Source of the DNA: Capsulimonadales bacterium
GTDB taxonomy: Bacteria; Armatimonadota; Armatimonadia; Armatimonadales; Armatimonadaceae
DNA length: 19,135 nt
NCBI GenBank assembly: GCA_033762295.1
Contig: JANRLW010000022.1
Location: 1-19,135 of the forward strand
Direction of reading: 5' to 3'
Below, piece by piece: positions 3,761 to 19,135 of this stretch; position 1 is the first letter of the stretch; each line of letters begins with the position of its first letter. The position numbers and the translations under genes were made by a program. A model generated the notes under the pieces. The model was not told the DNA's origin and ran no database searches. It saw only the letters and a list, made by a program, of their open reading frames with translations.

Positions 3761-4034
3761 ACGACCGGCGGCACTTACACGTACAACGGCATGGAGCAGG
3801 GGGTGCGCAAAGTGGAGGGCGGGAGCACCTTCAACTACACCCGCGAGGACGATCCGATCGATGCCGCTGTGCTCTCGGATGGCGCGGCCAGCTACATCCA
3901 GGCAGGCGATGGCATTGTCTCGGAGACCCGTGGCACTACGACAAGTTACTACCATGTCGCGGGACCCGATCCACGATGGGTACAACTGGTACACCTACTG
4001 CGAGAACGATCCGGTGAATGGGGTGGACCCGTGA
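3761..4034 (+). pseudogene. Rhs core remnant lacking any toxin CT
   Basis: TTGGTYTYNGMEQGVRKVEGGSTFNYTREDD...SDGAASYIQAGDGIVSETRGTTTSYYH, then a frame change to MSRDPIHDGYNWYTYCENDPVNGVDP*. The stop comes right after DP. Confidence 0.85.
3878..4031 (+). repeat. 154-bp direct repeat, copy 2
   Basis: Near-identical to 2759-2912, offset 1119 bp. Confidence 0.95.
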
Positions 4035-4088
4035 CGGAACGAACGGAGTTTATGAGGCCGATCGGGAGATTGGGGAAGGTTGGAGGCA

Positions 4089-5018: not shown

Positions 5019-5027
5019 CCGGTTGCC

Positions 5028-5561
5028 CTATTTCTCGATTATATCGAGTTTGAATTTTGCGCCAAAGTGGATATCCAAAATCAGCTTGCTATGGCGCATG
5101 GCTTCCATTCCGAGAATAACCTCATCCTCACCGAGTTCTCCTTCTTCGGTTTCGGTCGGATCAAGGTTTCGCGAATCTTTCCATCGCCATATACCTTGCC
5201 AGAAGCTCCCGACGGAATTCTTCTCCGGTCGGCGTAGAACCAGTACTTCAACAGGGATTGGGTCTTGTCGGGGTGGTTGAGCCTCATCCGTAAGCAGAAC
5301 GAAATGGACCGGGCAGTCGGAAACCGCACCGTTCGCGAAACCGACCCGTCGTACTCCTTTACCAAGAAAGGGCAGCCTGAGTTGCTCCTGAACGGACTGC
5401 GGAATCATCACGGAGCTGGTGCATCCGGTGTCGACAAGAGCATCGCCGGACCACGTAGTTTGGCCCGGTCCATTTGGATGAATCAAGACCAAGCGGACAC
5501 GAGGTTGGAGGCGAAAATAGGAATTAAAGACGATGCGACCGCTAAGCTGGACTTTTCTCAC
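5028..5561 (-). CDS. Clan AA (retropepsin-like) aspartic protease, single domain
   Basis: DALVDTGCTSSVMIP, FANG flap and EVILGM motifs. The GTG start at 5561 is inferred from overlap with the upstream gene. Confidence 0.8.
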   Translation of the reverse strand: MRKVQLSGRIVFNSYFRLQPRVRLVLIHPNGPGQTTWSGDALVDTGCTSSVMIPQSVQEQLRLPFLGKGVRRVGFANGAVSDCPVHFVLLTDEAQPPRQDPIPVEVLVLRRPEKNSVGSFWQGIWRWKDSRNLDPTETEEGELGEDEVILGMEAMRHSKLILDIHFGAKFKLDIIEK

Positions 5562-5850
5562 GTGAGAGGGTAATTGTGCGGAAATAGATATGCCCGGTTT
5601 GCGCCGAACTACCGAGTTGGGCCAGCGCTTCCGTCGAAGTCGTGCCGATCCCGAACGAGCCCGTGCGCAGATCGATGGCAATCTCTTTGCCGGTTTCCTT
5701 TTCCGTAATTCTTTTTGCGTCAGCAAGCTTTACGTAAAGAGATTCGCCGGCTTCCGCTACCTCGCGGAAGTATCGCGGCGATTGCCGAAGCGCTTGCCGA
5801 TCCAAATGTTGTATTTTCGAAGCGGGCAGTGTCAAGGATTGAGCAGACAT
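5542..5850 (-). CDS. Small partner protein of the aspartic protease (GKxIAID motif; DUF5678-like)
   Basis: MSAQS...GKEIAIDLRTGSFGIG...EALAQL...IYFRTI, with GGAG upstream. Resembles small genes commonly found 5' of clan AA proteases (recalled, not searched). Confidence 0.55.
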   Translation of the reverse strand: MSAQSLTLPASKIQHLDRQALRQSPRYFREVAEAGESLYVKLADAKRITEKETGKEIAIDLRTGSFGIGTTSTEALAQLGSSAQTGHIYFRTITLSREKSPA

Positions 5851-6066
5851 GGAGTGACTATTCTCTCCATACGTTTCGTTACGAGACGGAGCAAAGTCGT
5901 TTCTGTTCCTTTTTCGGTCAATCGTTTGGGATGGATTACCCTGCAAACGAAAAAGCCGGAAAAATACCATTGTCTGACCACCAAAGAAAACGCATTGTTA
6001 AGAAAATGTTAAGGCGTGGGCCTACCCGAAAATTTTACCATGCCGGAACTGCGAATAGCAAGAGAG

Positions 6067-6978
6067 CTAAAGAGTGGGCTGGTTCTTTGTTGATTTTCGA
6101 TCGCCATCACCCGAAAGATCCGGACGGTGTCGGGGGGCGGTGGTGGGTCGCGGGGTGTCGGGGAGGCGGGCGTTGCGGAGGATGTGGCGGACGGCGTCCT
6201 GATGGGTGGGTGGGTCAACCGGCGGGTGTGCCGCCGTTTGGGAGGGGCCGGATCGGGCGAGGTAGTCCCGGGTTCGGCGAATGCCCTGCAGGCAAAGGGC
6301 GTCGAGCAGGATGGTGATTTTGAGGGTGATGTATTTGTGCGCCTGACGGCGCGGGAGGCCGATGCGCTGTTTGCGGGATTGCGGACGGGCGTCGGGGAAC
6401 GTTATCCTGGCACCCGGTTCCTGGCCCCCCGGCCCCCGCACACGACGCTCGTGCCGCAGGCGGGGGAGAGAAGAGTGCGTGAGGCCGGAGAATTTGGCGG
6501 TGCCGACTTCGCGGAGAAGGTGGCGGATCGCCTGGAGGTAGTTCCTGCCGGTGGCGTGGCAGTAACGGTCGAGATGCCAGTGGGAATGGACATCCAGGTA
6601 GAGTGTGAGGAGTTGAGAAGGCCCCCCGGCCCCCGCAGGCGGGGGAGAAGGGACGTGGCACGACCTGCTTCTCGCATGGGCGCCCCCCGGCAACGCAAGC
6701 GGGGGAGAAGGAGAGGGGTAGAGGTCGGTGTTCATTTTGCCGCAGGTTTTGCATTTGTATTTTTGTGCGCCGTTTTTGGCGAAGCCGCGTTTGATGCAGG
6801 GACCGTTGCATTGCGGGCAGGGGCGTTCGGTCAGGTCGGGGCGGCGATGGGCGTAGTAGTAGCGTCCACAGGCGCGGCAGCGGAACTGTGGGTTATTGGG
6901 GGTGCCACCATTGCGGACGGCATTGCCGGACTTACAGTGTGGGCAAGCGGGTGTGTTGTTGGTGCGGGTGCCGCTCAT
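6067..6978 (-). CDS. Protein with two InsA-like Zn ribbons and two ribbon-helix-helix-like segments
   Basis: CPHC..VRNG..QFRCRACGR and CPQC..IKRG..QKYKCKTCGK. C-terminal half has LTLYLD...QAIRHLLRE and ITILLD...DAVRHILRN. No DDE domain recognised. Confidence 0.6.
   Translation of the reverse strand: MSGTRTNNTPACPHCKSGNAVRNGGTPNNPQFRCRACGRYYYAHRRPDLTERPCPQCNGPCIKRGFAKNGAQKYKCKTCGKMNTDLYPSPSPPLALPGGAHARSRSCHVPSPPPAGAGGPSQLLTLYLDVHSHWHLDRYCHATGRNYLQAIRHLLREVGTAKFSGLTHSSLPRLRHERRVRGPGGQEPGARITFPDARPQSRKQRIGLPRRQAHKYITLKITILLDALCLQGIRRTRDYLARSGPSQTAAHPPVDPPTHQDAVRHILRNARLPDTPRPTTAPRHRPDLSGDGDRKSTKNQPTL
6621..6647. repeat. Dispersed copy of the palindromic repeat seen at 8251-8410, here inside a CDS
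   Basis: GCCCCCCGGCCCCCGCAGGCGGGGGAG is 24/27 identical to the tandem unit. Degenerate copies at 6424-6468 and 6682-6707. Confidence 0.8.
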
Positions 6979-7035
6979 GGGAATGAACTGAGCGGCGGTG
7001 TGAGGAAGGCGGAAAGGGGCAGGAGGAGGTAGGCA

Positions 7036-7065
7036 GTACGGGCAGGCACAGGGGCCCGCCCGTAC
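7036..7065. repeat. REP-like palindrome / hairpin
   Basis: GTACGGGC-AGGCACAGGGGCCC-GCCCGTAC, intergenic and just downstream of the esterase stop. Confidence 0.6.
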
Positions 7066-7086
7066 ACGGAGTTGGGGACGAGGCGA

Positions 7087-8232
7087 TCAGCGGAAGAGTT
7101 TTGGGGTGAATTCGATGAGGTAGTCGCGCCAGATGAGCCAGGTATGGCCTCCTTCGGTCCGGTGATCGACGACGTCGAAGCCGTGTTTTTTGTAGAGGGC
7201 GACGGTGGCGTTATGGGTGTCGAGCAGGAAGTCGTCCTTGCCGATGCCCATCCAGAAGAGTTTAAGGTCTTTTTTGAGGGAGGCATCGTCGAGCAGGGCG
7301 CGGTTGTCGGTTTCGTAGGTAAAGGGGGGCGGGGCCGGTTGGCCGGGCCGGTTCCTCGGGACGATGCCGAAGAGGCCGGAACTGTAGACGCCGATGTAGC
7401 CGAAATCCTTGAGGTTGGGAATGGCGACGGCGAGGGTCTGAAAGCCGCCCATTGAGAGACCGGCGATGGCGCGGCTGGCCCGGTCGGTTTTAACGCGATA
7501 GGTGCGCTCGATATAGGGGCGAAGGTCTTTGTTGAAATCGTCGGTGAAGGCGCCGGGATTGAAGCCGCCGGTCATCGGGCCGGTGTGTCCGGCGGGCATG
7601 ACGACGATCATGGGGACGGCTTTTCCGGCGGCGATCAGGTTGTCGAAGATGATGTTGGCGCGACCGACGGAGGTCCAGGAATCGTCACAGTCCCCGGCTC
7701 CATGCAGGAGGTAGAAGACGGGGTAGGACCGGTCGGATTTTTCGTAGCCGGGCGGCGTGTAGACGTGCATGCGCCGGGGCCGACCGAGGGAGGTGGAGTG
7801 GTAGGTGACGGCGGCGACCGCGCCATGAGGGACGTTTTTGATGTCCATGAGGTCGGCTCCGGGGACGACGGCGAGGCTCCAACTGTTGGCGTTGGACTCG
7901 CTGACCGCGGGGTTGCGCGGGTCGAGGGTCGGAACGCCGTCGATGTTGAAGCGATAGCGGTAGGCGCCGGCGGGTACGGGGCCGAGGGTCACTTCCCAGA
8001 GATCGTTTTCTTTTTTGGTGAGGGTGTACGCTTCCGGGTTGGCAGCGGGAATGTCGCCGGCATCGAGGCGAACGGCGGTTGCTTTCGGGGCAAGGATGCG
8101 AAAGGTGAGTTTTCGCTCGGCGGTTACCTCGATGGAGGCGAACTGCGGCGGCGGTTGCGCCGTGGTGCGTCGTGGCGCGGCGAACACCAGGGCGGTGACG
8201 AGCAGAGTGGCAACGAGCATGGTTGTTTTCAT
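7087..8232 (-). CDS. Secreted esterase (Ig-like/CBM48-like N-domain plus CE1-type alpha/beta hydrolase)
   Basis: Signal peptide; VYTPPGY, YPVFYLLHGAGD, nucleophile elbow AGLSMGG, GGHTWLIWRDYL. Confidence 0.9.
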   Translation of the reverse strand: MKTTMLVATLLVTALVFAAPRRTTAQPPPQFASIEVTAERKLTFRILAPKATAVRLDAGDIPAANPEAYTLTKKENDLWEVTLGPVPAGAYRYRFNIDGVPTLDPRNPAVSESNANSWSLAVVPGADLMDIKNVPHGAVAAVTYHSTSLGRPRRMHVYTPPGYEKSDRSYPVFYLLHGAGDCDDSWTSVGRANIIFDNLIAAGKAVPMIVVMPAGHTGPMTGGFNPGAFTDDFNKDLRPYIERTYRVKTDRASRAIAGLSMGGFQTLAVAIPNLKDFGYIGVYSSGLFGIVPRNRPGQPAPPPFTYETDNRALLDDASLKKDLKLFWMGIGKDDFLLDTHNATVALYKKHGFDVVDHRTEGGHTWLIWRDYLIEFTPKLFR

Positions 8233-8250
8233 AGTTTTTACCTTTAGATG

Positions 8251-8410
8251 GCCCCCCGGCCCCCGTAAACGGGGGAGCGGAGGCCCCCCGGCCCCCGTAA
8301 ACGGGGGAGCGGAGACCCCCCGGCCCCCGTAAACGGGGGAGCGGAGGCCCCCCGGCCCCCGTAAACGGGGGAGTGGAGGCCCCCCGGCCCCCGTAAACGG
8401 GGGAGTGGAG
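8251..8410. repeat. Tandem array of five 32-bp palindromic units with no spacers
   Basis: (G/A)CCCCCCGGCCCCCGTAAACGGGGGAG(C/T)GGAG at 8251, 8283, 8315, 8347 and 8379; internal stem CCCCCG-TAAA-CGGGGG. Confidence 0.97.
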
Positions 8411-8447
8411 ATCCCTCGCTCAGGCGGTGGGAACGACGGGTGGGATT

Positions 8448-9269
8448 TTAGCGGTCGGGGAAGGGCCAGATACGGTCCCAGGCGTCGAGCCAGTCTTTGC
8501 CGTGGGCGCGGACTTTGAGCGGTTCGATGATTTCGACGTGGTCACGGCCCCGGAACTGACCGACTTTATCGACGGTTTCGACTTCGATAGTGATGGTGGT
8601 CGGACGCGCGGGAACGTAGACGTGGCCTTTATTCAGGCGAGAGAGGGCTTCACGGGCACCGTCTTCGATCATCCGGCGGGCGCGCAGGGGCGGAATCTGG
8701 CGGGCGGAGAAGCGGGTGAGACCGCGTTTGACGGCGACGTAGACCGGGGCATCGCCGAGGATTTCGCGGGATTCGCGGCAGACGGCTTCATCTCCGGTGA
8801 CGAGGGCGATGGGGCATCCGTAGTGTCCGCAGAGGGCGGCGTTGATGCCGAGTTCACCGACGAGGTCGTCGTTGAACCAGAGGTTGCGCCAGGTGACGGT
8901 GGAGATCGTGTGGCAGAGGACGCCATCGGGGGTTCCGGCGCGGGCGTGCATTCCGACCATGAGGGCGGCGTCGCACCCCGTCTCCAGGAGTTCGGTATAG
9001 CGGGACCATTTGTGGTGGGCGACCCATTCGCAGTCGGGATGCAGGAGTTCGGGGATGAAGGAGTTGAAGGTCCAGTCCCCGCCTGCGCCATGGCAGTCGA
9101 CGGCGACGATTTCGGTGGCTCCGGCGGCGAGCGCACCGCGTACGGCGGCGTTGATTTCCTCGGTGTAGAGTCGTCGGGCTTCCTCGAACATGGGGGAGCC
9201 GCCCTCGACCTGTTTCCAGGTGACGATTCCGCTGACGCCTTCCATATCGGACATGATGAGGATTTTCAT
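8448..9269 (-). CDS. dppA: M55 family metallopeptidase (D-aminopeptidase DppA-like)
   Basis: MKILIMSDMEGVSG, EINAAVRGA, VDCHG, GMHARAG..GVLCHT, LVTGD motifs. Confidence 0.9.
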   Translation of the reverse strand: MKILIMSDMEGVSGIVTWKQVEGGSPMFEEARRLYTEEINAAVRGALAAGATEIVAVDCHGAGGDWTFNSFIPELLHPDCEWVAHHKWSRYTELLETGCDAALMVGMHARAGTPDGVLCHTISTVTWRNLWFNDDLVGELGINAALCGHYGCPIALVTGDEAVCRESREILGDAPVYVAVKRGLTRFSARQIPPLRARRMIEDGAREALSRLNKGHVYVPARPTTITIEVETVDKVGQFRGRDHVEIIEPLKVRAHGKDWLDAWDRIWPFPDR

Positions 9270-9349
9270 GGGGCCTTTCGGGCGATGGCAGTGGTGGGTT
9301 GGGGGTTAGGTTGGGCGGGTCGGAGCGGATTTCCTGCGTGAACAGGCCG

Positions 9350-9391
9350 CGACCTGACACCGGATCGGTCTGCCGGATCGGTGTCAGGTCG
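9350..9391. terminator. 13-bp inverted repeat downstream of the lipoprotein gene
   Basis: CGACCTGACACCG...CGGTGTCAGGTCG. No U-tract, so it may be a stabiliser hairpin or a binding site. Confidence 0.45.
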
Positions 9392-9421
9392 TGGAGGGAG
9401 GGGGCGGGTTCGGCGACCGGC

Positions 9422-9643
9422 TCAGCGGCTGGCCGGGGGGGTGGTCGCCCTGGTGCCCTGCATGTAGTAGTCGGCCTGTCCGGGCGGGACGCGTTCGTTT
9501 TTGCGGAGGTCCTGGAATTCGGGTGCGGCTTTGCCGACGACCTGGCGGTTGACTTCGGGTTCGGCGGGGCGGCATCCGGTCAGGAGCAGGAGTCCGGCGG
9601 CGAGGGCCGTCGTGAGTGTCCGGTGATGGGTTTGTTTTTTCAT
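9422..9643 (-). CDS. Small lipoprotein (73 aa)
   Basis: MKKQ basic N-terminus, hydrophobic stretch, lipobox LTGC; lies directly after the prepilin-type gene. Confidence 0.7.
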   Translation of the reverse strand: MKKQTHHRTLTTALAAGLLLLTGCRPAEPEVNRQVVGKAAPEFQDLRKNERVPPGQADYYMQGTRATTPPASR

Positions 9644-9698
9644 GTTGGTTCGGGGGGAAGGGGCCGAAGGGACCATGGGCGGTCCCTTCGGCATCGAA

Positions 9699-10616
9699 TT
9701 AGAACCAGTTGACGGCCCAGCGGAGTTCACCCCAGACGGTTCGACCGTCCTGTCCGGGTGTGACGTGCCGCCACCAGGGGAGGACCTGGTTGATCTGGGA
9801 GCGGCGGTTGGCCCCTTCGCCACTGACGATCCGGAACCATTTGGCATGTCCGTCTGCGAAGGCGAAGTTTGCGCCGCCGGCATGGAACGGGGTGTTGACC
9901 GCGCCGCTCGCGCCGTTGATGCCGCAGTGTTCGGCGGCCCAACCGGGGGTGGTGACGATATTGCCGGCGGGGAAGTTTTCGATGCCGGGGAACGGGCTTC
10001 CGTCGTAGGCGACGCCGGTGAGGAGGCATCCGACGTTCTCGGCGATGATCGGCGACCCGCTGTTCATCGCGGGGTTATTGGCCATTCCCCACATTCGTCC
10101 CTCGGTGAAGGTGATGGTGTCGGCGGGGGCGACGAAACCGGCGAGGGCGACGGGGTTATGCTGAGCGTTGGCGGTGCCGTGGAGATCCCAGCGATATCCG
10201 GCGAGCATATCGTTGAAGAGATAGGTCGTCGGGGTGAGATCATAGCGGGAGCGCTGGTTGGAGCCGTCGGAGGGACATTTCTTGACCTGCTGGTTCTTCA
10301 TATAGGGGAGGAGGGAGTTGAACCATTGCGAGGTCCAGGGCGGGGTCTGGAGTTCGTGCATGAATTCGGCTCCGCCCATCGGACTGCGTTCATCGTAGTC
10401 CTGAACGTACATGACGAAGGCGAGGCCCCATTGCTTCATATTGGAGAGACAGGAGGCCTGCCGGGCTTTCTCGCGAGCCTGAGCGAAGACGGGGAAGAGG
10501 ATCGCGGCCAGAATGGCGATAATAGCGATAACCACGAGCAGTTCGATGAGCGTGAAAGCGGACCGGGAAGGGGAACGGCGGTTGGTCCGTCGGGAAACCG
10601 GCGATTGGTGCAGCAT
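9699..10616 (-). CDS. Prepilin-type N-terminal cleavage / H-X9-DG domain protein (DUF1559-like)
   Basis: [64 protein letters not shown]. Confidence 0.93.
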
Positions 10617-10813
10617 TGCGATACTTTGCCTTTCTACATCGAGTGAGTCGCGCCAACGTTCTGCGCCGGGCATGAAGCGCAGGAGGGAAGCGACGGCGGT
10701 GTTTTGTTGGGGCGAGCCCGATCGGCCCCGTCGCCGTCAATTTATGATAACGATTCCATAGGCTCTTCGGTTCCCGATCTCTCGTATTTTTTTCAATGAA
10801 TTTGTTTGGGGGT

Positions 10814-11716
10814 TCAGGGGCGATCGGTTGCTGGCGGGGATGTGTCGGTGTCGACGAGGGTGGTCAGGGTGACGCCGGGGTAACGGTTCGGGAGGATCGA
10901 GGGGGTGATGCGATAATCGGCGAAGCGGCGGGGGGCGAGGACGTCGGGTTGAAGTTCGACGTGGACGGTGTCGAAGAGGGACTGTGCGGGGGCATTACCG
11001 AGGGGGGAATCGTGGGAGAAGATCCGGAGTCCGCGGCAGACCATGTTTCCTCGGGCGGCGGAGCGATCGAGGTCCCAGAAGTGGGTGAGGGCTTCCCAGA
11101 GGAGGGCGAGGTCGGCTTCGGTGACGCCGGTTTGTCGTGCGAGCGGAGCGGAGACGTATCCGTAGGCGCGGTAGAGGGCGTAAGGTACGACGGCTTTTCG
11201 GGCGAAGGTGCGGTTTTCTCCTCCCTGGAGTTCGGATTCCTTGCCTGTGGCGACGGCAGTCCGTGTGAGGAGGAGGTCCATCGGGAAGATGGGGTCGAAG
11301 GAGCGGGCGAAGGTGAACTGAACGGGTCCGCGCACCTGGCCGGCGTTGAACTCTTTCAGGGACATGACGGCCCCGAAGAGGCGGACGTCGTAGAACAGTT
11401 CGCACATGCGACGTCGGGCGGCGTCGGGGGTTGCGGCGGCACCGAGGGAGTCGTAGGCTCGCTGCCGTTGTCGGGCGAGGACGGATTTTTCCTGTACGTA
11501 GATATCGAAGCCGGGGCGATCCTCGGCGGTGAGGGTGACGTAGTTGCGGATTTTTCGTTTGAGACAGACATCGGTGACGATCCCGTGACCGGTTTGCGGG
11601 TCGGCGCGGGGTAGGTTTCCGGCTTCGGGGTCGCCGTTGGGGTTGCCGTCGGTGACGTCGAACAGCAGGAGGAAATCGTGGCGGCGGTTCGGATCGGTAT
11701 GGATGGATGGTTTCAC
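10814..11716 (-). CDS. cas7c: Type I-C Cas7 (Csd2)
   Basis: FDVTDGNPNGDPEAGNLPR, VTDVCLKRKIRNYV, YDVRLFGAVM, GQVRGPVQF, DRSAARG, HDSPLGNAPA. The GTG start overlaps the cas5 stop (GTGA), with a GGAG RBS. Confidence 0.96.
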   Translation of the reverse strand: MKPSIHTDPNRRHDFLLLFDVTDGNPNGDPEAGNLPRADPQTGHGIVTDVCLKRKIRNYVTLTAEDRPGFDIYVQEKSVLARQRQRAYDSLGAAATPDAARRRMCELFYDVRLFGAVMSLKEFNAGQVRGPVQFTFARSFDPIFPMDLLLTRTAVATGKESELQGGENRTFARKAVVPYALYRAYGYVSAPLARQTGVTEADLALLWEALTHFWDLDRSAARGNMVCRGLRIFSHDSPLGNAPAQSLFDTVHVELQPDVLAPRRFADYRITPSILPNRYPGVTLTTLVDTDTSPPATDRP

Positions 11717-12417
11717 GGGTGGCGCTCCGGGCGATCGTAGAGGTGTGCGGGCACGTGGAGGACGCCGCGGCGGACGTGCGCGACGAAGAACCGGGGCTGG
11801 TTTTCCTCCGGGTCGGCGGCGTAGTCGATGTCGAAGAGCATGCGCTCGGGGGGCAGGTCGACGGGAACGGGTTTGAGGGGACCGGGATATCGTTCGGGCG
11901 GGAGGAAATCGGCGGCGAATTCCCGGCATCCGAGGGCGGGTCGGTGGAAACAGCGTCCTTTGTCGACGCGTCGTCGGAAAGCGTCACGAAACCGGGCGAT
12001 CGGTTCGGGAACGTCGGTTCGTGGTTCGATATCGGCGCAGATGCGGTAGGCGACGTTGCGGAGGGCGAGGGTATGTCTTTGCGTGCGACGTTCGGCGATA
12101 TCGATCGGGCGGGGTCGTTTCCTGCGGGGATCGGGGACGGTGTCGGTGAGTTCGTTTCGGAGCAGGGAGACGAAGGCGATCGGTCGAAGGATTTCGATCC
12201 GGCGGATTCGGTAGCGGAATTCGGGTTTCCAGTAGATGGCTTCGAGCATTCCGCGTGCGGCGGACGGTGTGGGGAGGGGATAGGAGACGCGTTCGACCTT
12301 CGTTTCGGGGCGTGTGAAGCAGGCGTACTCACCGAGGAGGACGGCTTCGACGGGTGGGGTTTTCGGATCGGACGCGCCCTGCGCCGCAGGGCGGTCCATT
12401 CGAGTTTCAATCCTCAT
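11713..12417 (-). CDS. cas5c: Type I-C Cas5 (Cas5d)
   Basis: GEYACFTRPETKVERVSYPLPTPSAARGMLEAIYWKP, RTQRHTLALRNVAY, KGRCFHRPALGCREF. ATGA overlap with cas8c; alternative ATG at 12399. Confidence 0.96.
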   Translation of the reverse strand: MRIETRMDRPAAQGASDPKTPPVEAVLLGEYACFTRPETKVERVSYPLPTPSAARGMLEAIYWKPEFRYRIRRIEILRPIAFVSLLRNELTDTVPDPRRKRPRPIDIAERRTQRHTLALRNVAYRICADIEPRTDVPEPIARFRDAFRRRVDKGRCFHRPALGCREFAADFLPPERYPGPLKPVPVDLPPERMLFDIDYAADPEENQPRFFVAHVRRGVLHVPAHLYDRPERHP

Positions 12418-12449
12418 CCGCCGGTCTCCGTTTCGGAGGCGGATGCGAC
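12404..12449 (-). CRISPR. Solitary type I-C CRISPR-repeat-like element at the cas8c/cas5 junction (not an array)
   Basis: GTCGCATCCGCCTCCGAAACGGAGACCGGCGGATGAGGATTGAAAC: GTCGC start, 8-bp stem CATCCGCC/GGCGGATG, 11-nt tail AGGATTGAAAC. No second copy found by eye. Confidence 0.75.
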
Positions 12450-14096
12450 GGGGGGGCGTTCGCGTTGTTCGGGGGGATAGGGGACGCGGACGACCGGGCG
12501 GGGTGCGTTCGGGAAGTGCCGTTCGGTTCTTTCGGCGAAGTAACCGAGGGCGAACGCGGCCTGTTGTTCGGGGGTCAGTGTTTCGGGGAGGGGGTGGGGG
12601 AGGGGGTGGTGCGGGGCGAGCGGGTACTGGGTATCAAAGTCTTCGGGCATCCGGGCGGCGAAGGCGTCGCGCGGGCGGGTCATGGCATGGGCGAGGCGTC
12701 GTTGGGCGAAGCGGTAGTCGCCACGGGCGGCGGCGGTTCGTTCGAGTTGAGAAAACAGGCGTCCGAGCCGGGCGGCGTCGGAAGTGGCATCATGGAGGGC
12801 CGACGTTTCGGGTCGTGCGGCGAGGAGGAGTTTGAACAGGGCGGCGAGCGGGCGGGGAACGAGTTCGGGTGCGGGGTGGGCACCGGGATCGTGGGGGGTG
12901 TATCCGACCTGGCAGCGTCGGAGGGCGCGGGGTAGGAGGGCGTTCGGCGGCGGTGTGTCGGTGAGTGCGCAGGCGACCATGGCGTCGTAGAGGGCGTTGG
13001 GCACGTCGGCGCGGGTCGGGAAGGCGGCTTCGGTGATCCGGCTGACGGGCAGGGGTTCGGCTTCGAGATCGTTCCAGGGGTCGGGGACGGCGGTGAGGCG
13101 GTTCCAGCGTTGTTCGGCGGCTTCGAGTTCGGCGGCGGTGAGTCGGAATCCGGAGCGGAACACGATCCGTCCGCCGCTGTGGCAGGAGAGTCCGATCAGG
13201 AAGCAGGGGGCTTCCGGGGGGAGGGGCGTTCCGGTTTCGGCGGCGTGGCCGACGAGGAGGCGTCGAGCGGCGGGGACGGCGCCTTCGGGGGACCAGGCGA
13301 CGTAGCGGATGCCTCGATCCCAGTCGCCGAGGGTGAAGGCGTGGGTTTCGGAATCGAGAAGGGATTCAAGGGCGAGAGCGGTTCGTTCGGCGGCATCGCG
13401 TCCGATCGGGGCGGAGAATTCACCGAGGTTATGTGACCGGAAGGCTTCGGCGTTGAGGGAGGAGAGGGCGGCTCCGGAGGGTTGTGCGCCGGGGACGTTT
13501 CGGAGGGAGACGGGGAGGCGTGGTTCGACGGAGGCGGGTTTTCCGGTGACGAGGCAGATCATGCGGCGGGCGCGTGGCTGGCGCAGGCAGTCATACCAGA
13601 AGTTTCGGACGGCGGGCAGGTCCTGGGGGAAGTGTCCGTCGACGCGGAAGGCGATCCGGTCCGTCGGTTTGAGGTCTTCGGGCAGATCGATTTCGGGGCG
13701 TTCGGGGTTCCATCGTTCGAGGAAGGCGAGAACGGTGAGGAGTAGGGGGTCGCCGACGGTCTCGTAGCAGCGTCGGACGAGGTTTCGGAACGCGGCGCGG
13801 TGTTCGGGAAAGCGGTCGGTCGGGATGCGGGCGCGGAGACGGTCGGCGGGGTCGATACCGAGGACATATTTGGCGTTATCGACGAGCAGTACGGGGGCGA
13901 TATTGGAGGATCGTTCGCGGAAGGGGAGGCAGGAACGGACGGGTTCGGTGTTCCAGGTGACATGATCGGCGTCGTGGCGGGTATCGAGGACGTGTCGGAG
14001 GGTTTGCCAGCGGTATCCGGCCGGGGGGTAGGGCAGGCCGGGGTGGGTGCGGGCAAAGAGGATTTCGGCATCGCGGTGGAGTTCGGAAAGGAACAT
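12414..14096 (-). CDS. cas8c: Type I-C Cas8c (Csd1), divergent
   Basis: RSSNIAPVLLVDNAKYVLG, ICLVTG, GAQPSGAALSSLNAEAFRSH, GGRIVFR, LGRLFSQLE, LTPEQQAAFALGYF. Confidence 0.92.
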   Translation of the reverse strand: MFLSELHRDAEILFARTHPGLPYPPAGYRWQTLRHVLDTRHDADHVTWNTEPVRSCLPFRERSSNIAPVLLVDNAKYVLGIDPADRLRARIPTDRFPEHRAAFRNLVRRCYETVGDPLLLTVLAFLERWNPERPEIDLPEDLKPTDRIAFRVDGHFPQDLPAVRNFWYDCLRQPRARRMICLVTGKPASVEPRLPVSLRNVPGAQPSGAALSSLNAEAFRSHNLGEFSAPIGRDAAERTALALESLLDSETHAFTLGDWDRGIRYVAWSPEGAVPAARRLLVGHAAETGTPLPPEAPCFLIGLSCHSGGRIVFRSGFRLTAAELEAAEQRWNRLTAVPDPWNDLEAEPLPVSRITEAAFPTRADVPNALYDAMVACALTDTPPPNALLPRALRRCQVGYTPHDPGAHPAPELVPRPLAALFKLLLAARPETSALHDATSDAARLGRLFSQLERTAAARGDYRFAQRRLAHAMTRPRDAFAARMPEDFDTQYPLAPHHPLPHPLPETLTPEQQAAFALGYFAERTERHFPNAPRPVVRVPYPPEQRERPPVASASETETGG

Positions 14097-14144
14097 GACG
14101 TGTTAAGAAACTCCGTATCCTGGCGTCCAAACGTCGGTGTGTGG

Positions 14145-14173
14145 ATTGTACCGTTCGTCCGGTCGGCTGTCAA
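14145..14173 (-). promoter_or_regulatory. Sigma70-type promoter of the cas operon
   Basis: Minus strand TTGACA (14173-14168), 17 nt, TACAAT (14150-14145), about 50 nt upstream of the cas8c ATG. Confidence 0.8.
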
Positions 14174-14231
14174 TGGGATTTTTCTTCGCCGGGTCGGTCG
14201 GATCGCGTCCGGTCGTGCCATAATGGGGAGG

Positions 14232-14699
14232 ATGAATTACTGGCTGATCAAGAGCGAACCGTCGGTGTTTTCGATCGACGATCTGGCGCGGGTCGGGGTG
14301 ACGTGCTGGGACGGGATTCGGAATTACCAGGCGCGGAATTATTTGCGGGACGGGATGCGTGTGGGCGACCGTGTTTTGTTTTACCATTCGAACGCGGACC
14401 CTCCGGCGGTGGTGGGGATTGCGGAGGTGGTTCGGGAGGCGTATCCGGATTCGACGGCGCTGGACCCGGAGCATCCGCATTTCGATCCGCGCAGTACTCC
14501 GGAGAACCCGATCTGGCTGATGACGGATATCGGGTTTGTGGCGAAGTTTTCTTCGGCGGTGCCGCTGGAGCGTTTGAAGGACGAGGCGGAACTGTCGGGA
14601 ATGGCGGTGATTCGGCGGGGGATGCGTCTTTCGGTGCAGCCGGTGACGGAGGCGCATTTCCGTCGGGTGTGCGAGATGGGCGGGCTGACGTTTCCTTGA
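14232..14699 (+). CDS. EVE domain-containing protein
   Basis: MNYWLIKSEPSVFSIDDL, WDGIRNYQARNYLR, GDRVLFYHSN, RLSVQPV. Extended -10-like TGCCATAAT at 14216-14224. Confidence 0.95.
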   Translation: MNYWLIKSEPSVFSIDDLARVGVTCWDGIRNYQARNYLRDGMRVGDRVLFYHSNADPPAVVGIAEVVREAYPDSTALDPEHPHFDPRSTPENPIWLMTDIGFVAKFSSAVPLERLKDEAELSGMAVIRRGMRLSVQPVTEAHFRRVCEMGGLTFP

Positions 14700-14725
14700 C
14701 AGCGGATTTGCGGTGGCGATAGAAT
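14696..14725 (+). promoter_or_regulatory. Sigma70-type promoter upstream of purA
   Basis: TTGACA (14696-14701), 18 nt, TAGAAT (14720-14725). Confidence 0.65.
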
Positions 14726-14753
14726 AGGCCGTTCATTCGAGATTCCTCTAACG

Positions 14754-14782
14754 GGATAGCGTACGCTATCCTTTTTCTTTTT
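14754..14782 (+). terminator. Intrinsic terminator-like perfect palindrome
   Basis: GGATAGC-GTAC-GCTATCC followed by TTTTTCTTTTT. Confidence 0.7.
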
Positions 14783-14814
14783 CGGGGGTATTTCGGGAAG
14801 TAAGGAGCGCGAAA

Positions 14815-16173
14815 ATGGGCGCGGTGGCGGTGGTCGGGACGCACTGGGGCGACGAAGCGAAAGGCAAATTCGTCGACCTTATCGGGCAGGATGCGGATCT
14901 GGTGATTCGTTACGGCGGCGGTCCGAACGCAGGCCATACGGTGATGGTGGGCGAGGAGACGTATAAGTTCCATCTGATCCCCTCAGGCATTTTGAATCCC
15001 CGTTGTCAGTTGATCATGGCGGACGGCATGGCGCTCGATCCGGCGGTGCTGGTCGGGGAGATCGTGGGTTTGGAGGCGCGGGGGATATCGACGTCCCACC
15101 TGCGAATCTCCCACAACGCCCATGTGATTCTTCCGTACCATCAGCTGCTGGACCGTTTGGAGGAGCAATCCCGCGGTTCGAGCGCGATCGGCACGACGGG
15201 TCGAGGGGTCGGTCCCTGTTACGAGGACAAGGCGGGTCGTCGGGGGATCCGGATGGGCGATCTGATCGATCCGGCGCGTTTACGTTCCCGTCTGGCGGCG
15301 GTATTGCCTCAGAAGAATGCGATTCTGACGCGGGTTTACGGGGCGTCTGCGCTGGATGCGGACGGTTTGCTATCGGAGCTGGAGCCTCTGGCGGCGCGTC
15401 TTGCGCCGTTCGTGACGGACACCACGGCTCTGGCGATGGAGGCTCTGGCGGCGGGGAAGCGGATTCTGTTCGAGGGGGCGCAGGCAACGCTGCTGGACCT
15501 TGACAGCGGGACATATCCTTATGTGACGTCATCGCATCCGGTGGCGGGCGGCGCCTGTCTGGGGACGGGGATTCCGCCGACGGCGATTTCTCAGGTTCTG
15601 GGTGTGGTGAAGGCGTATACGACGCGTGTTGGTTCGGGGACGTTTCCGACGGAGTTGACGGATGCGCGGGGCGAACGGATTCGGGAGCGGGGTCAGGAGT
15701 ACGGGACGACGACGGGTCGTCCGCGGCGTTGCGGCTGGCTGGACGCGGTGGCGTTGCGTTACTCGGCGCGGCTGAACGGATTGACGGGGATCTGTGTGGG
15801 CCACCTGGATGTTCTGGCCGGTTTCGAGTCGGTGGCGATCTGCACGGCGTATCTTCGGAACGGGGTTCGGGTGACGGAGTTTCCGGGCGGGGATGTGAGT
15901 CATCTGGACGGTTGCGAACCGGAGTATGAGTGGCTGCCGGGCTGGTCGGAGACGGATATGGAGCGTGTGCGTGAGTTCGGGGACCTGCCGACGAACGCGC
16001 GGAACTATGTCCGGCGTGTGTCGGAGATTGCGGGCGTTCCGGCGGTACTGGTTTCTATCGGTCCGCGTCGCGATCAGACGCTGGTGGCACCGGATTGTCC
16101 TCCTCCGAGCGCTCTGTTTACGGCGGAAAGGGGCCAACCGATCGTTGGTATGGCCGTCGCTCGTGTGCTATAA
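14815..16173 (+). CDS. purA: Adenylosuccinate synthetase
   Basis: WGDEAKGK, GGPNAGHT, IGTTGRGVGP, FEGAQ..LLDLD.GTYPYVTSS, EYGTTTGRPRRCGW. Confidence 0.99.
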   Translation: MGAVAVVGTHWGDEAKGKFVDLIGQDADLVIRYGGGPNAGHTVMVGEETYKFHLIPSGILNPRCQLIMADGMALDPAVLVGEIVGLEARGISTSHLRISHNAHVILPYHQLLDRLEEQSRGSSAIGTTGRGVGPCYEDKAGRRGIRMGDLIDPARLRSRLAAVLPQKNAILTRVYGASALDADGLLSELEPLAARLAPFVTDTTALAMEALAAGKRILFEGAQATLLDLDSGTYPYVTSSHPVAGGACLGTGIPPTAISQVLGVVKAYTTRVGSGTFPTELTDARGERIRERGQEYGTTTGRPRRCGWLDAVALRYSARLNGLTGICVGHLDVLAGFESVAICTAYLRNGVRVTEFPGGDVSHLDGCEPEYEWLPGWSETDMERVREFGDLPTNARNYVRRVSEIAGVPAVLVSIGPRRDQTLVAPDCPPPSALFTAERGQPIVGMAVARVL

Positions 16174-16174
16174 T
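16145..16174 (+). promoter_or_regulatory. Probable internal promoter for miaA-hfq
   Basis: TTGGTA, 18 nt, TATAAT with extended TG (TGCTATAAT), overlapping the purA stop. Confidence 0.55.
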
Positions 16175-16185
16175 CGGGGGCGGGT

Positions 16186-17184
16186 TTGGCGTTAACGGCG
16201 GAGCGTGAACGGCCGCTGGTGGCGCTGGTGGGTCCGACGGCGGTCGGGAAGACGGCGGTCGGGATCGCGCTGGCGAAGCGGTTGGGGGGCGAGATCATCA
16301 GTGCGGACGCGGTGGCGGTCTACCGTGGTCCGGATATTGGCGCGGCAAAGCCGACGCTGTCGGAGCGTGCGGAGGTTCCGTTTCATCTGATCGACGTGGT
16401 TTCCCCGGCGGAGGACTTTACGGTTACGGATTTTTCCCGTCTGGCAGAGGAGGCGATATCGGCGATTCGCGGGCGTGGTCGGTGGCCGATTGTCGTCGGG
16501 GGGACGGGTTTGTATGTTCGTGCGGTGACGGCGACGTTGACGGTACCGAATGTTCCCCCGCAGCCGGAGATTCGCGCGGAGTTACAGGCGGAGTCGGATG
16601 CGTTCGGTTCCGCGGTTTTGCATGCGCGTCTGGGGGCGATCGATCCGGCGGCGGCGGCGCGTATTTTGCCGGGGGACGCGAAGCGCATCATCCGTGCCCT
16701 GGAGGTGTACCGTGTGACGGGCCGTCCGTTCTCCTCGTTCCATACGCCGGAGGGCGTTCATGGGGTTCCCCGTCCGAACACGTGGCAGTTCGGCCTGCGT
16801 ATGGATCGGTCGCAGTTGTATGCGCGGATCGAGGCGCGGGTGGACGCGATGCTGGCGGCGGGTTTCGAGGACGAGGTTCGTGGTTTGCTGGCGGCGGGTT
16901 TTGATCCGGGTTTGAAGGCGTTACAGAGCCTGGGGTATCGTCATCTGGGGCGTTATGTGCTGGGGGAGACGGATTTCGAGACGGCGGTAACGGAGTTGAA
17001 GCGGGATACGCGTCGTTACGCCCGTCGGCAGATGATCTGGTTTCAGGCTGACCCGAATATCGTCTGGTACGATAGATCGGTTCCGTCGGGAGAGAGGGTT
17101 TCGGCGGGTTCCGGGAGCGGGGACGAGGCCCTTGCGGAGGCGATCGCGGAGCGTTTGACCGGTGGTGCGGGTTATGCGGGATGA
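16186..17184 (+). CDS. miaA: tRNA dimethylallyltransferase
   Basis: GPTAVGKT, EIISADAVAVY, HLID, VGGTGLY, RIIRALEV, TRRYARRQ. Confidence 0.98.
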   Translation: MALTAERERPLVALVGPTAVGKTAVGIALAKRLGGEIISADAVAVYRGPDIGAAKPTLSERAEVPFHLIDVVSPAEDFTVTDFSRLAEEAISAIRGRGRWPIVVGGTGLYVRAVTATLTVPNVPPQPEIRAELQAESDAFGSAVLHARLGAIDPAAAARILPGDAKRIIRALEVYRVTGRPFSSFHTPEGVHGVPRPNTWQFGLRMDRSQLYARIEARVDAMLAAGFEDEVRGLLAAGFDPGLKALQSLGYRHLGRYVLGETDFETAVTELKRDTRRYARRQMIWFQADPNIVWYDRSVPSGERVSAGSGSGDEALAEAIAERLTGGAGYAG

Positions 17185-17248
17185 AGGTGCGAAAAGATAC
17201 GGAAAGTATGAGAGAAGTGCAGGAATGATCGAAGGAAGGACAACTCGA

Positions 17249-17542
17249 ATGAACAAACCGCAGGTGAATTTGCAGGATACGTTTCTGAACGCGGTCCGCA
17301 AGGAGAATATCGCTGTCACGATCTACTTGATCAACAGCGTGCAGTTGCGCGGGCATGTGCGCGGCTTCGACACGTTTACGATTCTTCTGGAGTCACCGGG
17401 TCGCCCGACGCAGCTGGTGTACAAGAGTGCGATCACGAGTATTGTGCCGATGCGACCGGTCCATCTCCGTGAGTTAGGCGAGCCTCAGGCTCCGAAGGCG
17501 CCGCCGGAGGAGGTTCCGGCGGCGGAACCGGCGGGCCAGTAA
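17249..17542 (+). CDS. hfq: RNA chaperone Hfq
   Basis: MNKPQVNLQDTFLNAVRKE, VTIYLINSVQLRG, FDTFTILL, QLVYKSAITSI; conserved miaA-hfq synteny. Confidence 0.97.
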   Translation: MNKPQVNLQDTFLNAVRKENIAVTIYLINSVQLRGHVRGFDTFTILLESPGRPTQLVYKSAITSIVPMRPVHLRELGEPQAPKAPPEEVPAAEPAGQ

Positions 17543-17636
17543 CTCGTTCGGCAGGGCGTTCCCGGAGGGGTCCGGGAGCGTTCCTCCCGATGACGGCGCG
17601 ATTAAGCGGTTAAGAGCGGTTAAGAAGCGGGCATCT

Positions 17637-18482
17637 ATGACATTGGATTTCACGAAAATGCACGGCCTCGGCAACGACTTCGTGGTGGTCGACGGTCTGG
17701 CTCCGGGATCGCCTTCGGTGGAATCGTTGATTCCGCATCTTCCGTTGATCGGGGACCGTCGTTTCGGGGTTGGTTTCGACCAGTTTCTGGTGGTGCTTCC
17801 TTCCGAGGCGGCGGATTTCACGATGCGTATCTTCAATCCGGACGGTTCGGAGGCGGAGATGTGCGGAAACGGTATCCGGGCGTTTGCGAAGTTCGTTTAC
17901 GACCGGGGGTATACGTCGAAGTCGGAGATATCGGTGTCGACGCTCGGCGGCGTGAAGTATCTGGCGCTGGAAACGGAAGCGGGGAAAGTGACGCGGGTTC
18001 GGGTGGATATGGGTGAGCCGGGTTTACAGCGTTCGGACCTGCCGATGACGGGCGAGTCCGGTCCGGTGACGGATGAGCCGCTGTACGTTCAGGGTGAGGT
18101 GGTACGTATAACGGGGGTTTCGATGGGGAACCCGCACGTGGTGTTTTTCTCGGACAATGCAACAGAGGAATTGATCAATCGTCTCGGCCCTCTTCTGGAG
18201 AATCACGAACATTTTCCTCGCCGTACGAATGTCCATCTGGTTCAGGTCGTGTCGTCGGAGGAGATCCGGGTTTTGACCTGGGAGCGTGGCGCGGGCCGGA
18301 CGCTGGCCTGCGGGACCGGGGCATGCGCTTCGGTGGTGGCGTCGCATGTGAACGGCCGGATCGGTCGTCGCGCGACGGTGCATCTGCTGGGCGGCGACCT
18401 TTTGATCGACTGGGCGGCGGATAATCATGTTTACATGACCGGTCCGGCGACCGAGGTATTTTCGGCGAGGATGGAATGGTAA
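17637..18482 (+). CDS. dapF: Diaminopimelate epimerase
   Basis: FTKMHGLGNDF, NPDGSEAEMCGNGIR, SMGNPHVV, WERGAGRTLACGTGACA. Confidence 0.99.
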   Translation: MTLDFTKMHGLGNDFVVVDGLAPGSPSVESLIPHLPLIGDRRFGVGFDQFLVVLPSEAADFTMRIFNPDGSEAEMCGNGIRAFAKFVYDRGYTSKSEISVSTLGGVKYLALETEAGKVTRVRVDMGEPGLQRSDLPMTGESGPVTDEPLYVQGEVVRITGVSMGNPHVVFFSDNATEELINRLGPLLENHEHFPRRTNVHLVQVVSSEEIRVLTWERGAGRTLACGTGACASVVASHVNGRIGRRATVHLLGGDLLIDWAADNHVYMTGPATEVFSARMEW

Positions 18483-18552
18483 CGGGAAGTCGTTTCGGAA
18501 GAAGGACTTGACGCTTTGTTGTGGAAATGGAAAACGTAGAAAAGACACTACC

Positions 18553-19135
18553 ATGATACACGAGGCGAATTCGGCGGCACCTGTCGAGAGCAACGGTACG
18601 ACCGGCGATAACGTCGTGGTTACGGAGTCGGCGAGCGGGATCAGCGGCGTAACGGTGAAGGGTTGGCGGAACGGTTTGTTGCTGATTCTGCCCCCGGACG
18701 GGACCTGGGACAGCGTCATGCAGCAGGTCCATACGAAACTGGATGAGGCGAAGGCGCGATCGTTCTGGCGTGGTTCGCAAACGACGATCGATTGCGGGAT
18801 GCGGGTGGTCCCGCGTCCGGAGTTGTCCTCGCTGACGGACTTTATCAAGCGGGCGTTCGGTCTGGTACCGGTGGCGGTGGTAGCGTCGGACGAAGGTACC
18901 CGGGCGGCGGGTCAGCAGCTGGGTCTGGCACCTTATTCGGAGTTACCGATCGTTCGAAAGCCGGCCCGGGTCACGGAGCCGGAGCCGGAGCGGGAACCGG
19001 AGCGGGACGTTGCCGAGAAGGAATCGAGCGTTGCGCGTTCACCGTATTTCCCCAACAATGCGCTGTACGTTCCGAACACGTTGCGTTCGGGTCAGCGTGT
19101 GATGCACGACGGCCACCTGATCATCTGCGGCGATG
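18553..19135 (+). CDS. minC: Septum site-determining protein MinC (3' truncated by the window; not in the ORF track)
   Basis: Manual translation: MIHEANS...VTVKGWRNGLLLIL...ALYVPNTLRSGQRVMHDGHLIICGD (MinC TLRSGQ...GD motif). Confidence 0.9.
   Translation, partial: MIHEANSAAPVESNGTTGDNVVVTESASGISGVTVKGWRNGLLLILPPDGTWDSVMQQVHTKLDEAKARSFWRGSQTTIDCGMRVVPRPELSSLTDFIKRAFGLVPVAVVASDEGTRAAGQQLGLAPYSELPIVRKPARVTEPEPEREPERDVAEKESSVARSPYFPNNALYVPNTLRSGQRVMHDGHLIICGD

Follow-up and report, generated by a model that had tools for sequence, protein, structure and literature searches.

A CRISPR repeat that lies within protein-coding sequence raises the question of whether it takes any part in the expression of the genes that it joins or is simply left over from their history. 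Such an element is found in a Capsulimonadales bacterium (assembly GCA_033762295.1), on the minus strand of a contig (JANRLW010000022.1, here C22) that was analysed in its entirety; this stretch of 19,135 nucleotides (nt) is hereafter called the window, and the genome to which it belongs comprises 5.16 Mb in 132 contigs and is 94.5% complete. Three genes for the Cascade complex of a type I-C system follow each other in the window in the order cas8c-cas5-cas7, and the element, 46 nt long, bridges the end of cas8c and the beginning of cas5. A preliminary description, made from the sequence alone, had taken it for a solitary type I-C repeat at which Cas5 might cut the operon message. In the following we examine whether the element is a repeat, in what kind of operon it stands, and what it may do there.

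A type I-C repeat at the cas8c/cas5 junction

The features of the junction are the following:

12449..12404, minus strand: solitary type I-C CRISPR repeat of 46 nt, reading GTCGCATCCGCCTCCGAAACGGAGACCGGCGGATGAGGATTGAAAC
12404..12449, minus strand: parts of the repeat, namely a 4-nt 5' overhang, an 8-bp stem, a 15-nt loop (usually 6 nt) and an 11-nt 3' tail
12415..12445, minus strand: repeat hairpin, whose outer 8-bp stem pairs 12445-12438 with 12422-12415
12437-12434 with 12430-12427, minus strand: nested 4-bp stem in the repeat loop, from the predicted fold
12429-12426, minus strand: GGAG resembling a Shine-Dalgarno sequence, inside the nested stem and 8 nt before the cas5 ATG
12414..12417, minus strand: ATGA overlap of the cas5 ATG (12417-12415) and the cas8c TGA (12416-12414), the former in the 3' arm of the stem
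12404..12414, minus strand: handle-forming 11-nt tail, AGGATTGAAAC, the same as the tail of the array repeats of this genome
12363..12403, minus strand: second strong hairpin, right after the repeat, covering an alternative in-frame cas5 ATG (12399-12397)

That the element is a true type I-C CRISPR repeat is shown by several comparisons. Twelve array repeats from related as well as unrelated genomes, the junction element not among them, were used to build a covariance model; this model scores the element at 44.3 bits (E 2e-10), and the second-best match in the window at 13.6 bits. In the alignment to the model all the consensus positions outside the loop are intact save the variable position 3 of the overhang. 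The Rfam family CRISPR-DR9 (RF01322) aligns to exactly 12404-12449 with its positions 1-37 of 37, at 30.9 bits (E 2.3e-5); this is below the gathering score of 45 bits, a shortfall due to the loop of 15 nt in place of one of 6, and hence no match is returned at the gathering threshold. The length of 46 nt likewise exceeds the usual range of I-C repeats, i.e., about 32-37 nt. The consensus of the repeat family, consisting of a 5' GUNGC, a GC-rich stem of 7-8 bp and an 11-nt 3' tail ending in AUUGAAAC, is found in full.

The likeness to the repeats of the same genome is equally clear. Indeed, the last 17 nt and nine of the first ten nt of the resident array repeat, GTGGCATCCGGTCTTCGGGCCGGATGAGGATTGAAAC, are common to the junction element, and the 17-mer CGGATGAGGATTGAAAC, with up to two mismatches allowed, occurs in the genome 28 times in CRISPR arrays, once at the junction and nowhere else. 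The short motif ATTGAAAC is not significant alone (two matches in the window; 19 of 200 shuffles give at least two); the complete element lies well outside what chance would give. Among the matches listed, short blastn searches of the genome with the element and with the array repeat gave only noise outside the arrays, and no second repeat or mini-array was detected near the element by the covariance model at E up to 10 with filters off. The element is thus a single copy on its 19-kb contig and is not part of an array, the arrays of the genome being located on contigs C53 and C76.

The stem of the element, CATCCGCC/GGCGGATG, is one base pair away from that of the resident array. Because real I-C arrays elsewhere carry this very stem (e.g., L042, L045/L046 and L049), the element belongs to a CATCCGCC/GGCGGATG-stem subfamily of repeats, from which it departs only in the longer loop and in the variable overhang position 3. 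No array with the CATCCGCC stem was found in the assembly of this genome, which leaves no source from which the junction copy could be refreshed. The exact 19-mer GGCGGATGAGGATTGAAAC occurs at 15 loci of the genome contig collection, in arrays or as single copies; cas genes were detected in three of them (L046, L048 and L055), and in none of the 15 does it lie at a cas8c/cas5 junction.

The predicted fold of the 46-nt element has a free energy of -19.2 kcal/mol (z -2.95; 1 of 200 shuffles equally good), and the same hairpin is also predicted within 151 nt of context. The second hairpin (12403-12363), separated from the handle by 6 nt only, is stronger (-25.3 kcal/mol, z -4.35; none of 200 shuffles equally good) and encodes non-conserved leader residues of Cas5. 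Both candidate starts of cas5, the first ATG and that at 12399, sit inside strong predicted hairpins, and so the translation of cas5 should depend on ribosomes arriving from cas8c. By analogy with the published cleavage rule (PMC8524198), Cas5c would cut between 12415 and 12414; from this position there are about 31 nt to the loop of the second hairpin and 52 nt to its 3' base.

The preliminary description therefore stands as far as the structure is concerned. The assignment to type I-C is borne out by the covariance model, by the full-length alignment to CRISPR-DR9 and by the 17-nt identity to the arrays of the genome, the alignment to these repeats and to I-C families that it had called for being strongly positive and extending far beyond ATTGAAAC; the geometry that it had given (cas8c stop, cas5 start, GGAG and predicted cut at 12415/12414) agrees with the open reading frame (ORF) coordinates and with the sequence, and the fold (8-bp stem, nested GGAG stem and 11-nt tail) is recovered in the prediction. 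It had also held that a cut at ATG|AGG would sever the start codon from cas5: the position is right, but a second in-frame ATG is available at 12399, and the translation of cas5 need not be abolished.

The same folds might be read in a simpler way, that is, the two hairpins might only tune the coupling between cas8c and cas5-cas7, or the stability of the mRNA, independently of Cas5 and with the repeat ancestry being irrelevant. The pairing of both start codons and of the GGAG fits this idea, and the ATGA overlap, together with the GTGA overlap found at the cas5/cas7 junction, points to coupling. We regard it as quite improbable, given that it leaves unexplained the exact match to the consensus of the single-stranded 11-nt tail and of the 5' overhang.

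The reordered operon and its Cas5

The operon to which the element belongs consists of:

14145..14173, minus strand: sigma-70-like promoter upstream of cas8c, TTGACA-17-TACAAT, 11 of 12 matches
12414..14096, minus strand: cas8c (Csd1), 560 residues, highly divergent; Pfam PF09709 (Cas_Csd1), 1.6e-52
11713..12417, minus strand: cas5c, 234 residues from the first ATG (228 from the ATG at 12399); Pfam PF09704 (Cas_Cas5d), 6.5e-26
10814..11716, minus strand: cas7c (Csd2), about 300 residues from the GTG at 11716; Pfam PF05107 (Cas_Cas7), 1.7e-90

All the type I-C interference proteins Cas5c, Cas8c and Cas7c are thus encoded in the operon. The homology of Cas8c stops near residue 523 and its final 37 residues form a non-conserved tail, the last 11 of which, with the stop codon, are encoded by the repeat. 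The Cas5 protein matches the Cas5c entries of the PDB at E 2e-41; its core begins at residue 22, and 120 homologs have unrelated short leaders. The stop of cas5 and the start of cas7 overlap as GTGA (11716-11713), and the alignment of Cas7 with its paralog on contig C53 starts precisely at the GTG at 11716. The sigma-70-like site is unique in the region 10600-14300, where shuffles average 0.3 such sites. On the whole the operon looks alive, if one judges from its three intact ORFs, the 4-nt overlaps at both junctions, the near-consensus promoter and the conserved columns of Cas5.

Neither cas3 nor a CRISPR array is present on the contig of the operon, and the only match to a Cas3 HD domain in the whole assembly lies on C53. 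This contig harbors a canonical I-C locus, with a WYL regulator, cas3, an ORF of 141 codons, cas5, cas8c, cas7 and then a CRISPR array; the proteins of the operon share with these paralogs 41-45% (Cas8c), 60% (Cas5) and 67% (Cas7) identity. In the canonical locus (L003, C53:1-8745) the array directly follows cas7, with no cas4, cas1 or cas2 in between, and the assembly, 94.5% complete, gave no match to Cas1 at all. The array runs over two contig ends, from C53 into C76:1-1700 (L004), and comprises at least 28 repeats, the last of which, near C76:1579, is degenerate.

No other locus among those examined has the order cas8c-cas5-cas7. It departs from the canonical type I-C organization cas3-cas5-cas8c-cas7 with a neighbouring array, and not one of the 83 related loci in which gene order could be assessed shares it. 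In the same taxonomic order, cas5 precedes cas8c, as is canonical, in 16 out of the 16 loci holding both genes. None of 80 metagenome loci, the Cas5 of which is 41-55% identical, has the gene order of the operon: neither cas8c nor cas7 lies upstream of cas5 in any of them, and cas8c lies downstream in 69, with the restriction that 13 of the 80 have less than 700 nt upstream of cas5 and cannot be judged for gene order.

Orthologs of the operon were found neither in 71 genomes of the order nor in 401 genomes of the phylum. Similarly, Cas8c retrieved no close relative of the operon from the genome contig collection, and no close relative emerged from 5.8 billion proteins searched with Cas8c and Cas5: the closest Cas8c in a set of 1.84 billion representatives has 42% identity, and the closest Cas5 in the protein collection is the C53 paralog, with 60%. 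A pattern search of metagenome contigs for long-loop versions of the repeat gave 0 matches.

The Cas5 of the operon is itself peculiar. The catalytic triad of the Streptococcus mutans Cas5c is Tyr50-Lys120-His121, the lysine being called invariant (PMC8524198). The aligned positions of the operon Cas5 are Tyr62, Arg142 and Phe143, and the equivalents of Tyr-Lys-His that mark an active Cas5c RNase are therefore incomplete. The column mapping agrees with the published description of the triad (PMC8524198) and with the Tyr-Lys-His found in 37 of 96 related loci. The lysine itself is present in 93 of the 96 loci, and among 120 homologs the residue at this position is K 116 times, A three times and R once. 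The only other arginine at this column among the 96 loci is carried by a metagenome contig (L087, cas5 at 1445-2077, with Tyr-Arg-Tyr), for which no handle-like match is listed in the 12-nt handle scan described below. The operon Cas5 keeps 74 of the 80 columns that are at least 90% conserved, and its terminal branch measures 0.79 substitutions per site versus 0.19-0.29 in four clade mates; from the two values taken together, the operon is old or fast-evolving but constrained.

These data bear on the proposal that the Cas5 of the operon cleaves its own message, which is weakened by the presence of Arg142 at a nearly invariant catalytic position. Rather, the substitution suggests binding or slow cutting by this Cas5, or else cutting by the Cas5c of C53, which retains the catalytic lysine.

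Since the genome is a metagenome-assembled draft of 132 contigs, and repeats are classic points of misjoining, one may wonder whether two contigs were falsely joined at a CRISPR repeat. We consider this very improbable indeed. The element differs from the array repeat of the genome in stem, loop and length and has no spacer-like flanks; moreover, the junction is a seamless 4-nt overlap of two intact and compatible paralogous cas genes, about equally diverged from their C53 copies, and the GC content of the operon (0.65-0.67, close to that of its flanks) is uniform across the cas8c/cas5 join. Of a recent horizontal transfer of the operon there is likewise no sign, its GC content being close to that of the flanks.

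Solitary repeats before cas5 and a possible role of the junction element

Type I-C loci repeatedly have a lone repeat in front of cas5, a feature that is already known. Solitary repeat units (SRUs) directly preceding cas5c have been reported to be cut by Cas5c 3' of the repeat hairpin. The products, 48-50 nt long, resemble CRISPR RNAs (crRNAs): they begin with an 11-nt handle, and their 3' end falls within the loop of a hairpin located downstream. These crRNA-like RNAs repress a TTC/TTA-flanked target upstream of cargo genes (bioRxiv 10.1101/2024.12.27.630466). According to Shmakov et al. (PMC10120712), a fraction of 0.34 of 1206 I-C loci has at least one standalone repeat-like sequence, such sequences being frequent by-products of recombination at repeats; their survey kept only those not overlapping ORFs.

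The search of 96 related loci (408 kb) with the covariance model gave 29 matches at E<=1, 18 of which form one array directly upstream of cas5 in genome G022. Nine of the 11 solitary matches lie upstream of cas5 and on its strand, including those of L107 (36.7 bits), of L075 (22.7 bits), where 17 nt lie between the end of the repeat and the GTG of cas5, and of the canonical locus on C53 (16.1 bits). A cruder scan with the 12-nt handle, allowing up to two mismatches and taking as upstream zone up to 920 nt on the cas5 strand, revealed 24 solitary handle-like 12-mers in 69 kb of this zone, compared with 7 on the same strand and 17 on the opposite strand in the other 339 kb, counts that overstate independence in view of near-duplicate loci and of the GAGGA, similar to a Shine-Dalgarno sequence, contained in the handle. 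When six loci were inspected, five showed a hairpin, a handle, 15-32 nt and a strong 3' hairpin, whereas in the sixth (L023) no 3' hairpin was seen. The preliminary description had stated that no case of this geometry was known. This does not hold for repeats directly before cas5c that Cas5c cuts to leave an 11-nt handle, which have been described in type I-C (bioRxiv 10.1101/2024.12.27.630466); it does hold for a repeat embedded in the coding overlap of two cas genes, of which no description was found in the literature, the supplements of the preprints being outside this coverage.

Three further loci deserve mention. In L007 (G022:C61:13402-17025) the array directly upstream of cas5, on the same strand, ends in decayed repeats (22 and 20 bits) some 150 nt short of this gene, and such a decaying array is a natural route to a lone repeat before cas5. 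In L040 (G023:C74:5277-8293), near locus position 1500 on the minus strand, there is a solitary I-C-type repeat with a 7-bp stem, a GCAA loop and the tail TGAGGATTGAAAC; the genome belongs to the same family, is 85% complete and gave no match to Cas5. Finally, the degenerate solitary repeat of the canonical locus (C53:4993-5020, 16.1 bits) lies on the minus strand, within C53:4920-5150, between cas3 and the small ORF before cas5, and is followed by about 34 nt and then by a 10-bp hairpin. A TTC with an 8-position seed match is found at C53:5089, 70 nt upstream of the repeat itself and just after a TTGACA-17-TAATAT promoter, which makes this degenerate SRU a candidate for a self-regulating crRNA-like RNA, with the arrangement expected for such RNAs.

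By the same logic, the junction element might produce a guide: the cut RNA, made of the handle and about 20-40 nt and ending in or after the second hairpin, would load the Cas3-less Cascade and repress a promoter or a gene. The succession of a repeat and a 3' hairpin before cas5 matches both the described I-C crRNA-like RNAs (bioRxiv 10.1101/2024.12.27.630466) and the related loci, and a Cascade that lacks both cas3 and an array would be well fitted to regulation alone. A match that might be counted in favor of this idea is the TTC followed by 10 nt at C53:18020-18032 (L137), identical to the sequence after the junction handle and falling in codons 5-9 of a pilin-like (prepilin-type) gene; it lies on the contig of the canonical cas locus and is probably due to chance, about 0.15 such matches being expected genome-wide by estimate. 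The genome scan with TTC and seed gave nothing above background; its best matches, i.e., this one and a site inside a ComEC-like ORF on C45, are intragenic and about as many as chance would give. In the promoter region of cas8c (14040-14320), searched with TTC, TTA, TTT and TTG, the best match flanked by a protospacer adjacent motif (PAM) is 7/12, which equals the background median, and the TTC/TTA-flanked target upstream of regulated genes that characterizes SRUs is missing. Moreover, the gap of 6 nt between the handle and a hairpin of -25 kcal/mol compares with 15-32 nt in the five related SRUs. Guide production thus has, in our opinion, a low probability, and the guide or decoy suggested in the preliminary description finds no PAM-flanked target and meets a strong hairpin 6 nt after the handle.

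We propose instead, with a probability of about 45%, that the element is a domesticated SRU that came along with cas5c and has become part of the operon mRNA, and that it would still be a Cas5c recognition site and would gate the step from cas8c to cas5, either by binding or by a cut. The arrangement most likely originated from the exchange of two adjacent blocks, so that an ancestral layout [SRU-cas5c]-cas8c-cas7 would have become cas8c-SRU-cas5c-cas7. After the swap, the ORFs of cas8c and cas5 would have grown into the repeat, which came to supply the stop of the former and the first start of the latter; this growth is suggested by the lack of conservation of the Cas8c tail past about residue 523 and of the Cas5 leader before residue 22.

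In the operon mRNA, the 8-bp repeat hairpin would bury the GGAG and the first AUG, and the next hairpin the second AUG. The translation of cas5, and of cas7 coupled to it through the GTGA, would then fall chiefly to ribosomes that terminate on cas8c at the overlapping UGA and thereby melt the hairpin. Free Cas5c, which might be either the Tyr-Arg-Phe variant of the operon, probably a binder or a slow cutter, or the Lys-bearing Cas5c of C53, would recognise the base of the stem and the 11-nt tail. Its binding would block re-initiation, and cleavage past G12415 would strip off the stop of cas8c along with the first AUG, with Cas5 staying on the 5' end of the cas5-cas7 RNA. By either route, free Cas5c would feed back negatively on the synthesis of the Cascade subunits. 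Self-processing of the operon mRNA is a plausible hypothesis.

What distinguishes this proposal from its main competitor is the pattern of change in the repeat. In the Bacillus halodurans Cas5c, mutations in the loop and in the 5' overhang were reported not to be inhibitory, and mutations in the stem base and in the 3' tail to be so (PMC8524198). The junction element differs from array repeats only in the loop and in overhang position 3, the stem base and the tail being intact; the changes are thus confined to parts in which Cas5c reportedly tolerates mutation (PMC8524198), which favors use. The competitor is that the element is an inert relic, the leftover of an SRU or of an array end after a rearrangement, kept only for the stop, the start and the coupling, and neither bound nor cut effectively by Cas5. 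This is in agreement with the frequency of standalone repeat-like sequences as by-products of recombination (Shmakov et al., PMC10120712), with the arginine at the catalytic position, as expected from a loss of processing in a paralog, and with the failure to find a target or a second repeat; besides, the ATGA in the repeat tail is already part of the array-repeat consensus of this genome and of genome G018, and the stop and start would have come free of charge. Nevertheless, we judge the relic to be rather unlikely. Of the 46 positions, few are accounted for by coding needs, and the residues encoded there vary among homologs; yet the consensus outside the loop has remained intact save position 3, while the branch of the adjoining Cas5 is 3-4 times as long as those of its clade mates. 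A repeat left unspoiled along such a branch, in stretches encoding non-conserved protein tails, would again speak for use.

Several points weigh against a role as a Cas5c-dependent gate. The 15-nt loop lies outside any substrate tried with Cas5c. Efficient self-cleavage by the operon Cas5 is doubtful because Arg142 replaces the catalytic lysine. Part of the preservation of the repeat is explained by the stop and start codons that it encodes, and intergenic repeat-like sequences are common in I-C loci, where many may be inert. Finally, because no ortholog of the operon was found, the junction offers no evidence from conservation or covariation.

In a bolder variant, the repeat would gate a spare Cascade. 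According to it, free Cas5c, above all the catalytically intact one of C53, would cut or clamp the junction and keep the paralogous operon silent; when the Cas5c of C53 is absent, saturated with crRNAs or blocked, for instance by an anti-CRISPR, the diverged back-up Cascade would be made and, the handle being identical, could work with the same crRNAs. The change from lysine to arginine would then be an adaptation by which the operon Cas5 spares its own message. We deem this variant unlikely.

As for known systems, the junction element resembles the I-C SRUs (bioRxiv 10.1101/2024.12.27.630466) in subtype, in the position right before cas5c on the same strand, in its hairpin with an 11-nt handle and in the downstream hairpin. 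The described SRUs, however, are intergenic, follow non-cas cargo genes and have a spacer-like stretch as well as a TTC/TTA-flanked target upstream of the cargo, whereas the junction element lies in the coding overlap of cas8c and cas5, 6 nt before a hairpin, with no target found and in an operon devoid of cas3 and of an array. With the CreR/CreA and mini-array regulators (bioRxiv 10.1101/2023.03.10.532045; PMC10120712) it would share a repeat-derived RNA in a cas locus that ties the levels of Cas proteins to cas expression; those regulators repress promoters as guides and are in most cases flanked on both sides by repeat-like sequences, while at the junction there is neither a second repeat nor a promoter match. 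Its geometry falls outside the scope of the survey of Shmakov et al. (PMC10120712), because repeat-like sequences overlapping ORFs were discarded there. A solitary I-C repeat that can engage Cas proteins from inside a longer protein-coding transcript is also known from the RNA anti-CRISPRs (Racrs), such as RacrIC1, co-transcribed with acrIC5 (PMC10651486). Racrs, however, are carried by phages and plasmids and inhibit the system of the host (PMC10651486), and they often lie next to acr genes, whereas the junction element is chromosomal, flanked by housekeeping genes and inside a cas operon. In mechanism, though not by homology, our proposal resembles phage MS2, the coat protein of which represses translation through the replicase operator hairpin, which contains the downstream start codon; Cas5, in contrast, would act on the expression of its own gene and might cleave the RNA as well.

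Since SRUs before cas5c have already been described, what is unusual here is the in-frame position in a gene overlap, the reordered paralog without cas3 or an array, and the replacement of lysine by arginine. Repeat-derived self-regulating RNAs (CreR, crRNA-like RNAs and Racr) are a recent theme, and the described cases are separate small RNA genes acting as guides or decoys. If our reading is correct, a repeat would form a stretch of the very mRNA that encodes the Cascade proteins, free Cas5c would be linked through it to Cascade synthesis directly and without a guide, and a cross-talk between two paralogous Cascades might exist. Surveys that discard repeat-like sequences overlapping ORFs can miss such elements. 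The unusual features named above make the junction a good experimental case; it offers a natural Cas5c with arginine at the catalytic lysine, beside its putative substrate, and the operon adds a type I-C Cascade without Cas3 and arrays to the derived type I systems that lack an assigned role.

The surrounding contig

The operon is flanked on one side by an EVE-domain gene, purA, miaA and dapF, and on the other by a DUF1559 pilin-like gene and a D-aminopeptidase gene. Between the latter and an esterase gene, in the region 8250-8450, six head-to-tail units of 32 nt are found, each with a CCCCCG-TAAA-CGGGGG hairpin, and related copies lie 1.6 kb away, at 6422-6444, 6588-6660 and 6683-6711. These units, which have no spacers, were ruled out as a CRISPR array.

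Near the beginning of the window, a 71-nt module encoding the motif DP..GYNWY.YC.NDPVN..DP occurs at 1537-1607, 2842-2912 and 3961-4031, and its last two copies are included in a 157-nt duplicate (2756-2912 and 3875-4031). The motif resembles what we take to be the core end of RHS/YD-type polymorphic toxin cassettes. The GC content around the modules is lower, 0.47-0.54, and Pfam gives no family for the small ORFs located there. From position 4000 to 19135, the plus strand shows a GC skew of +0.19 to +0.36 per 1-kb bin, except for 5001-6000 (0.02), and this strong skew spans genes of both strands.

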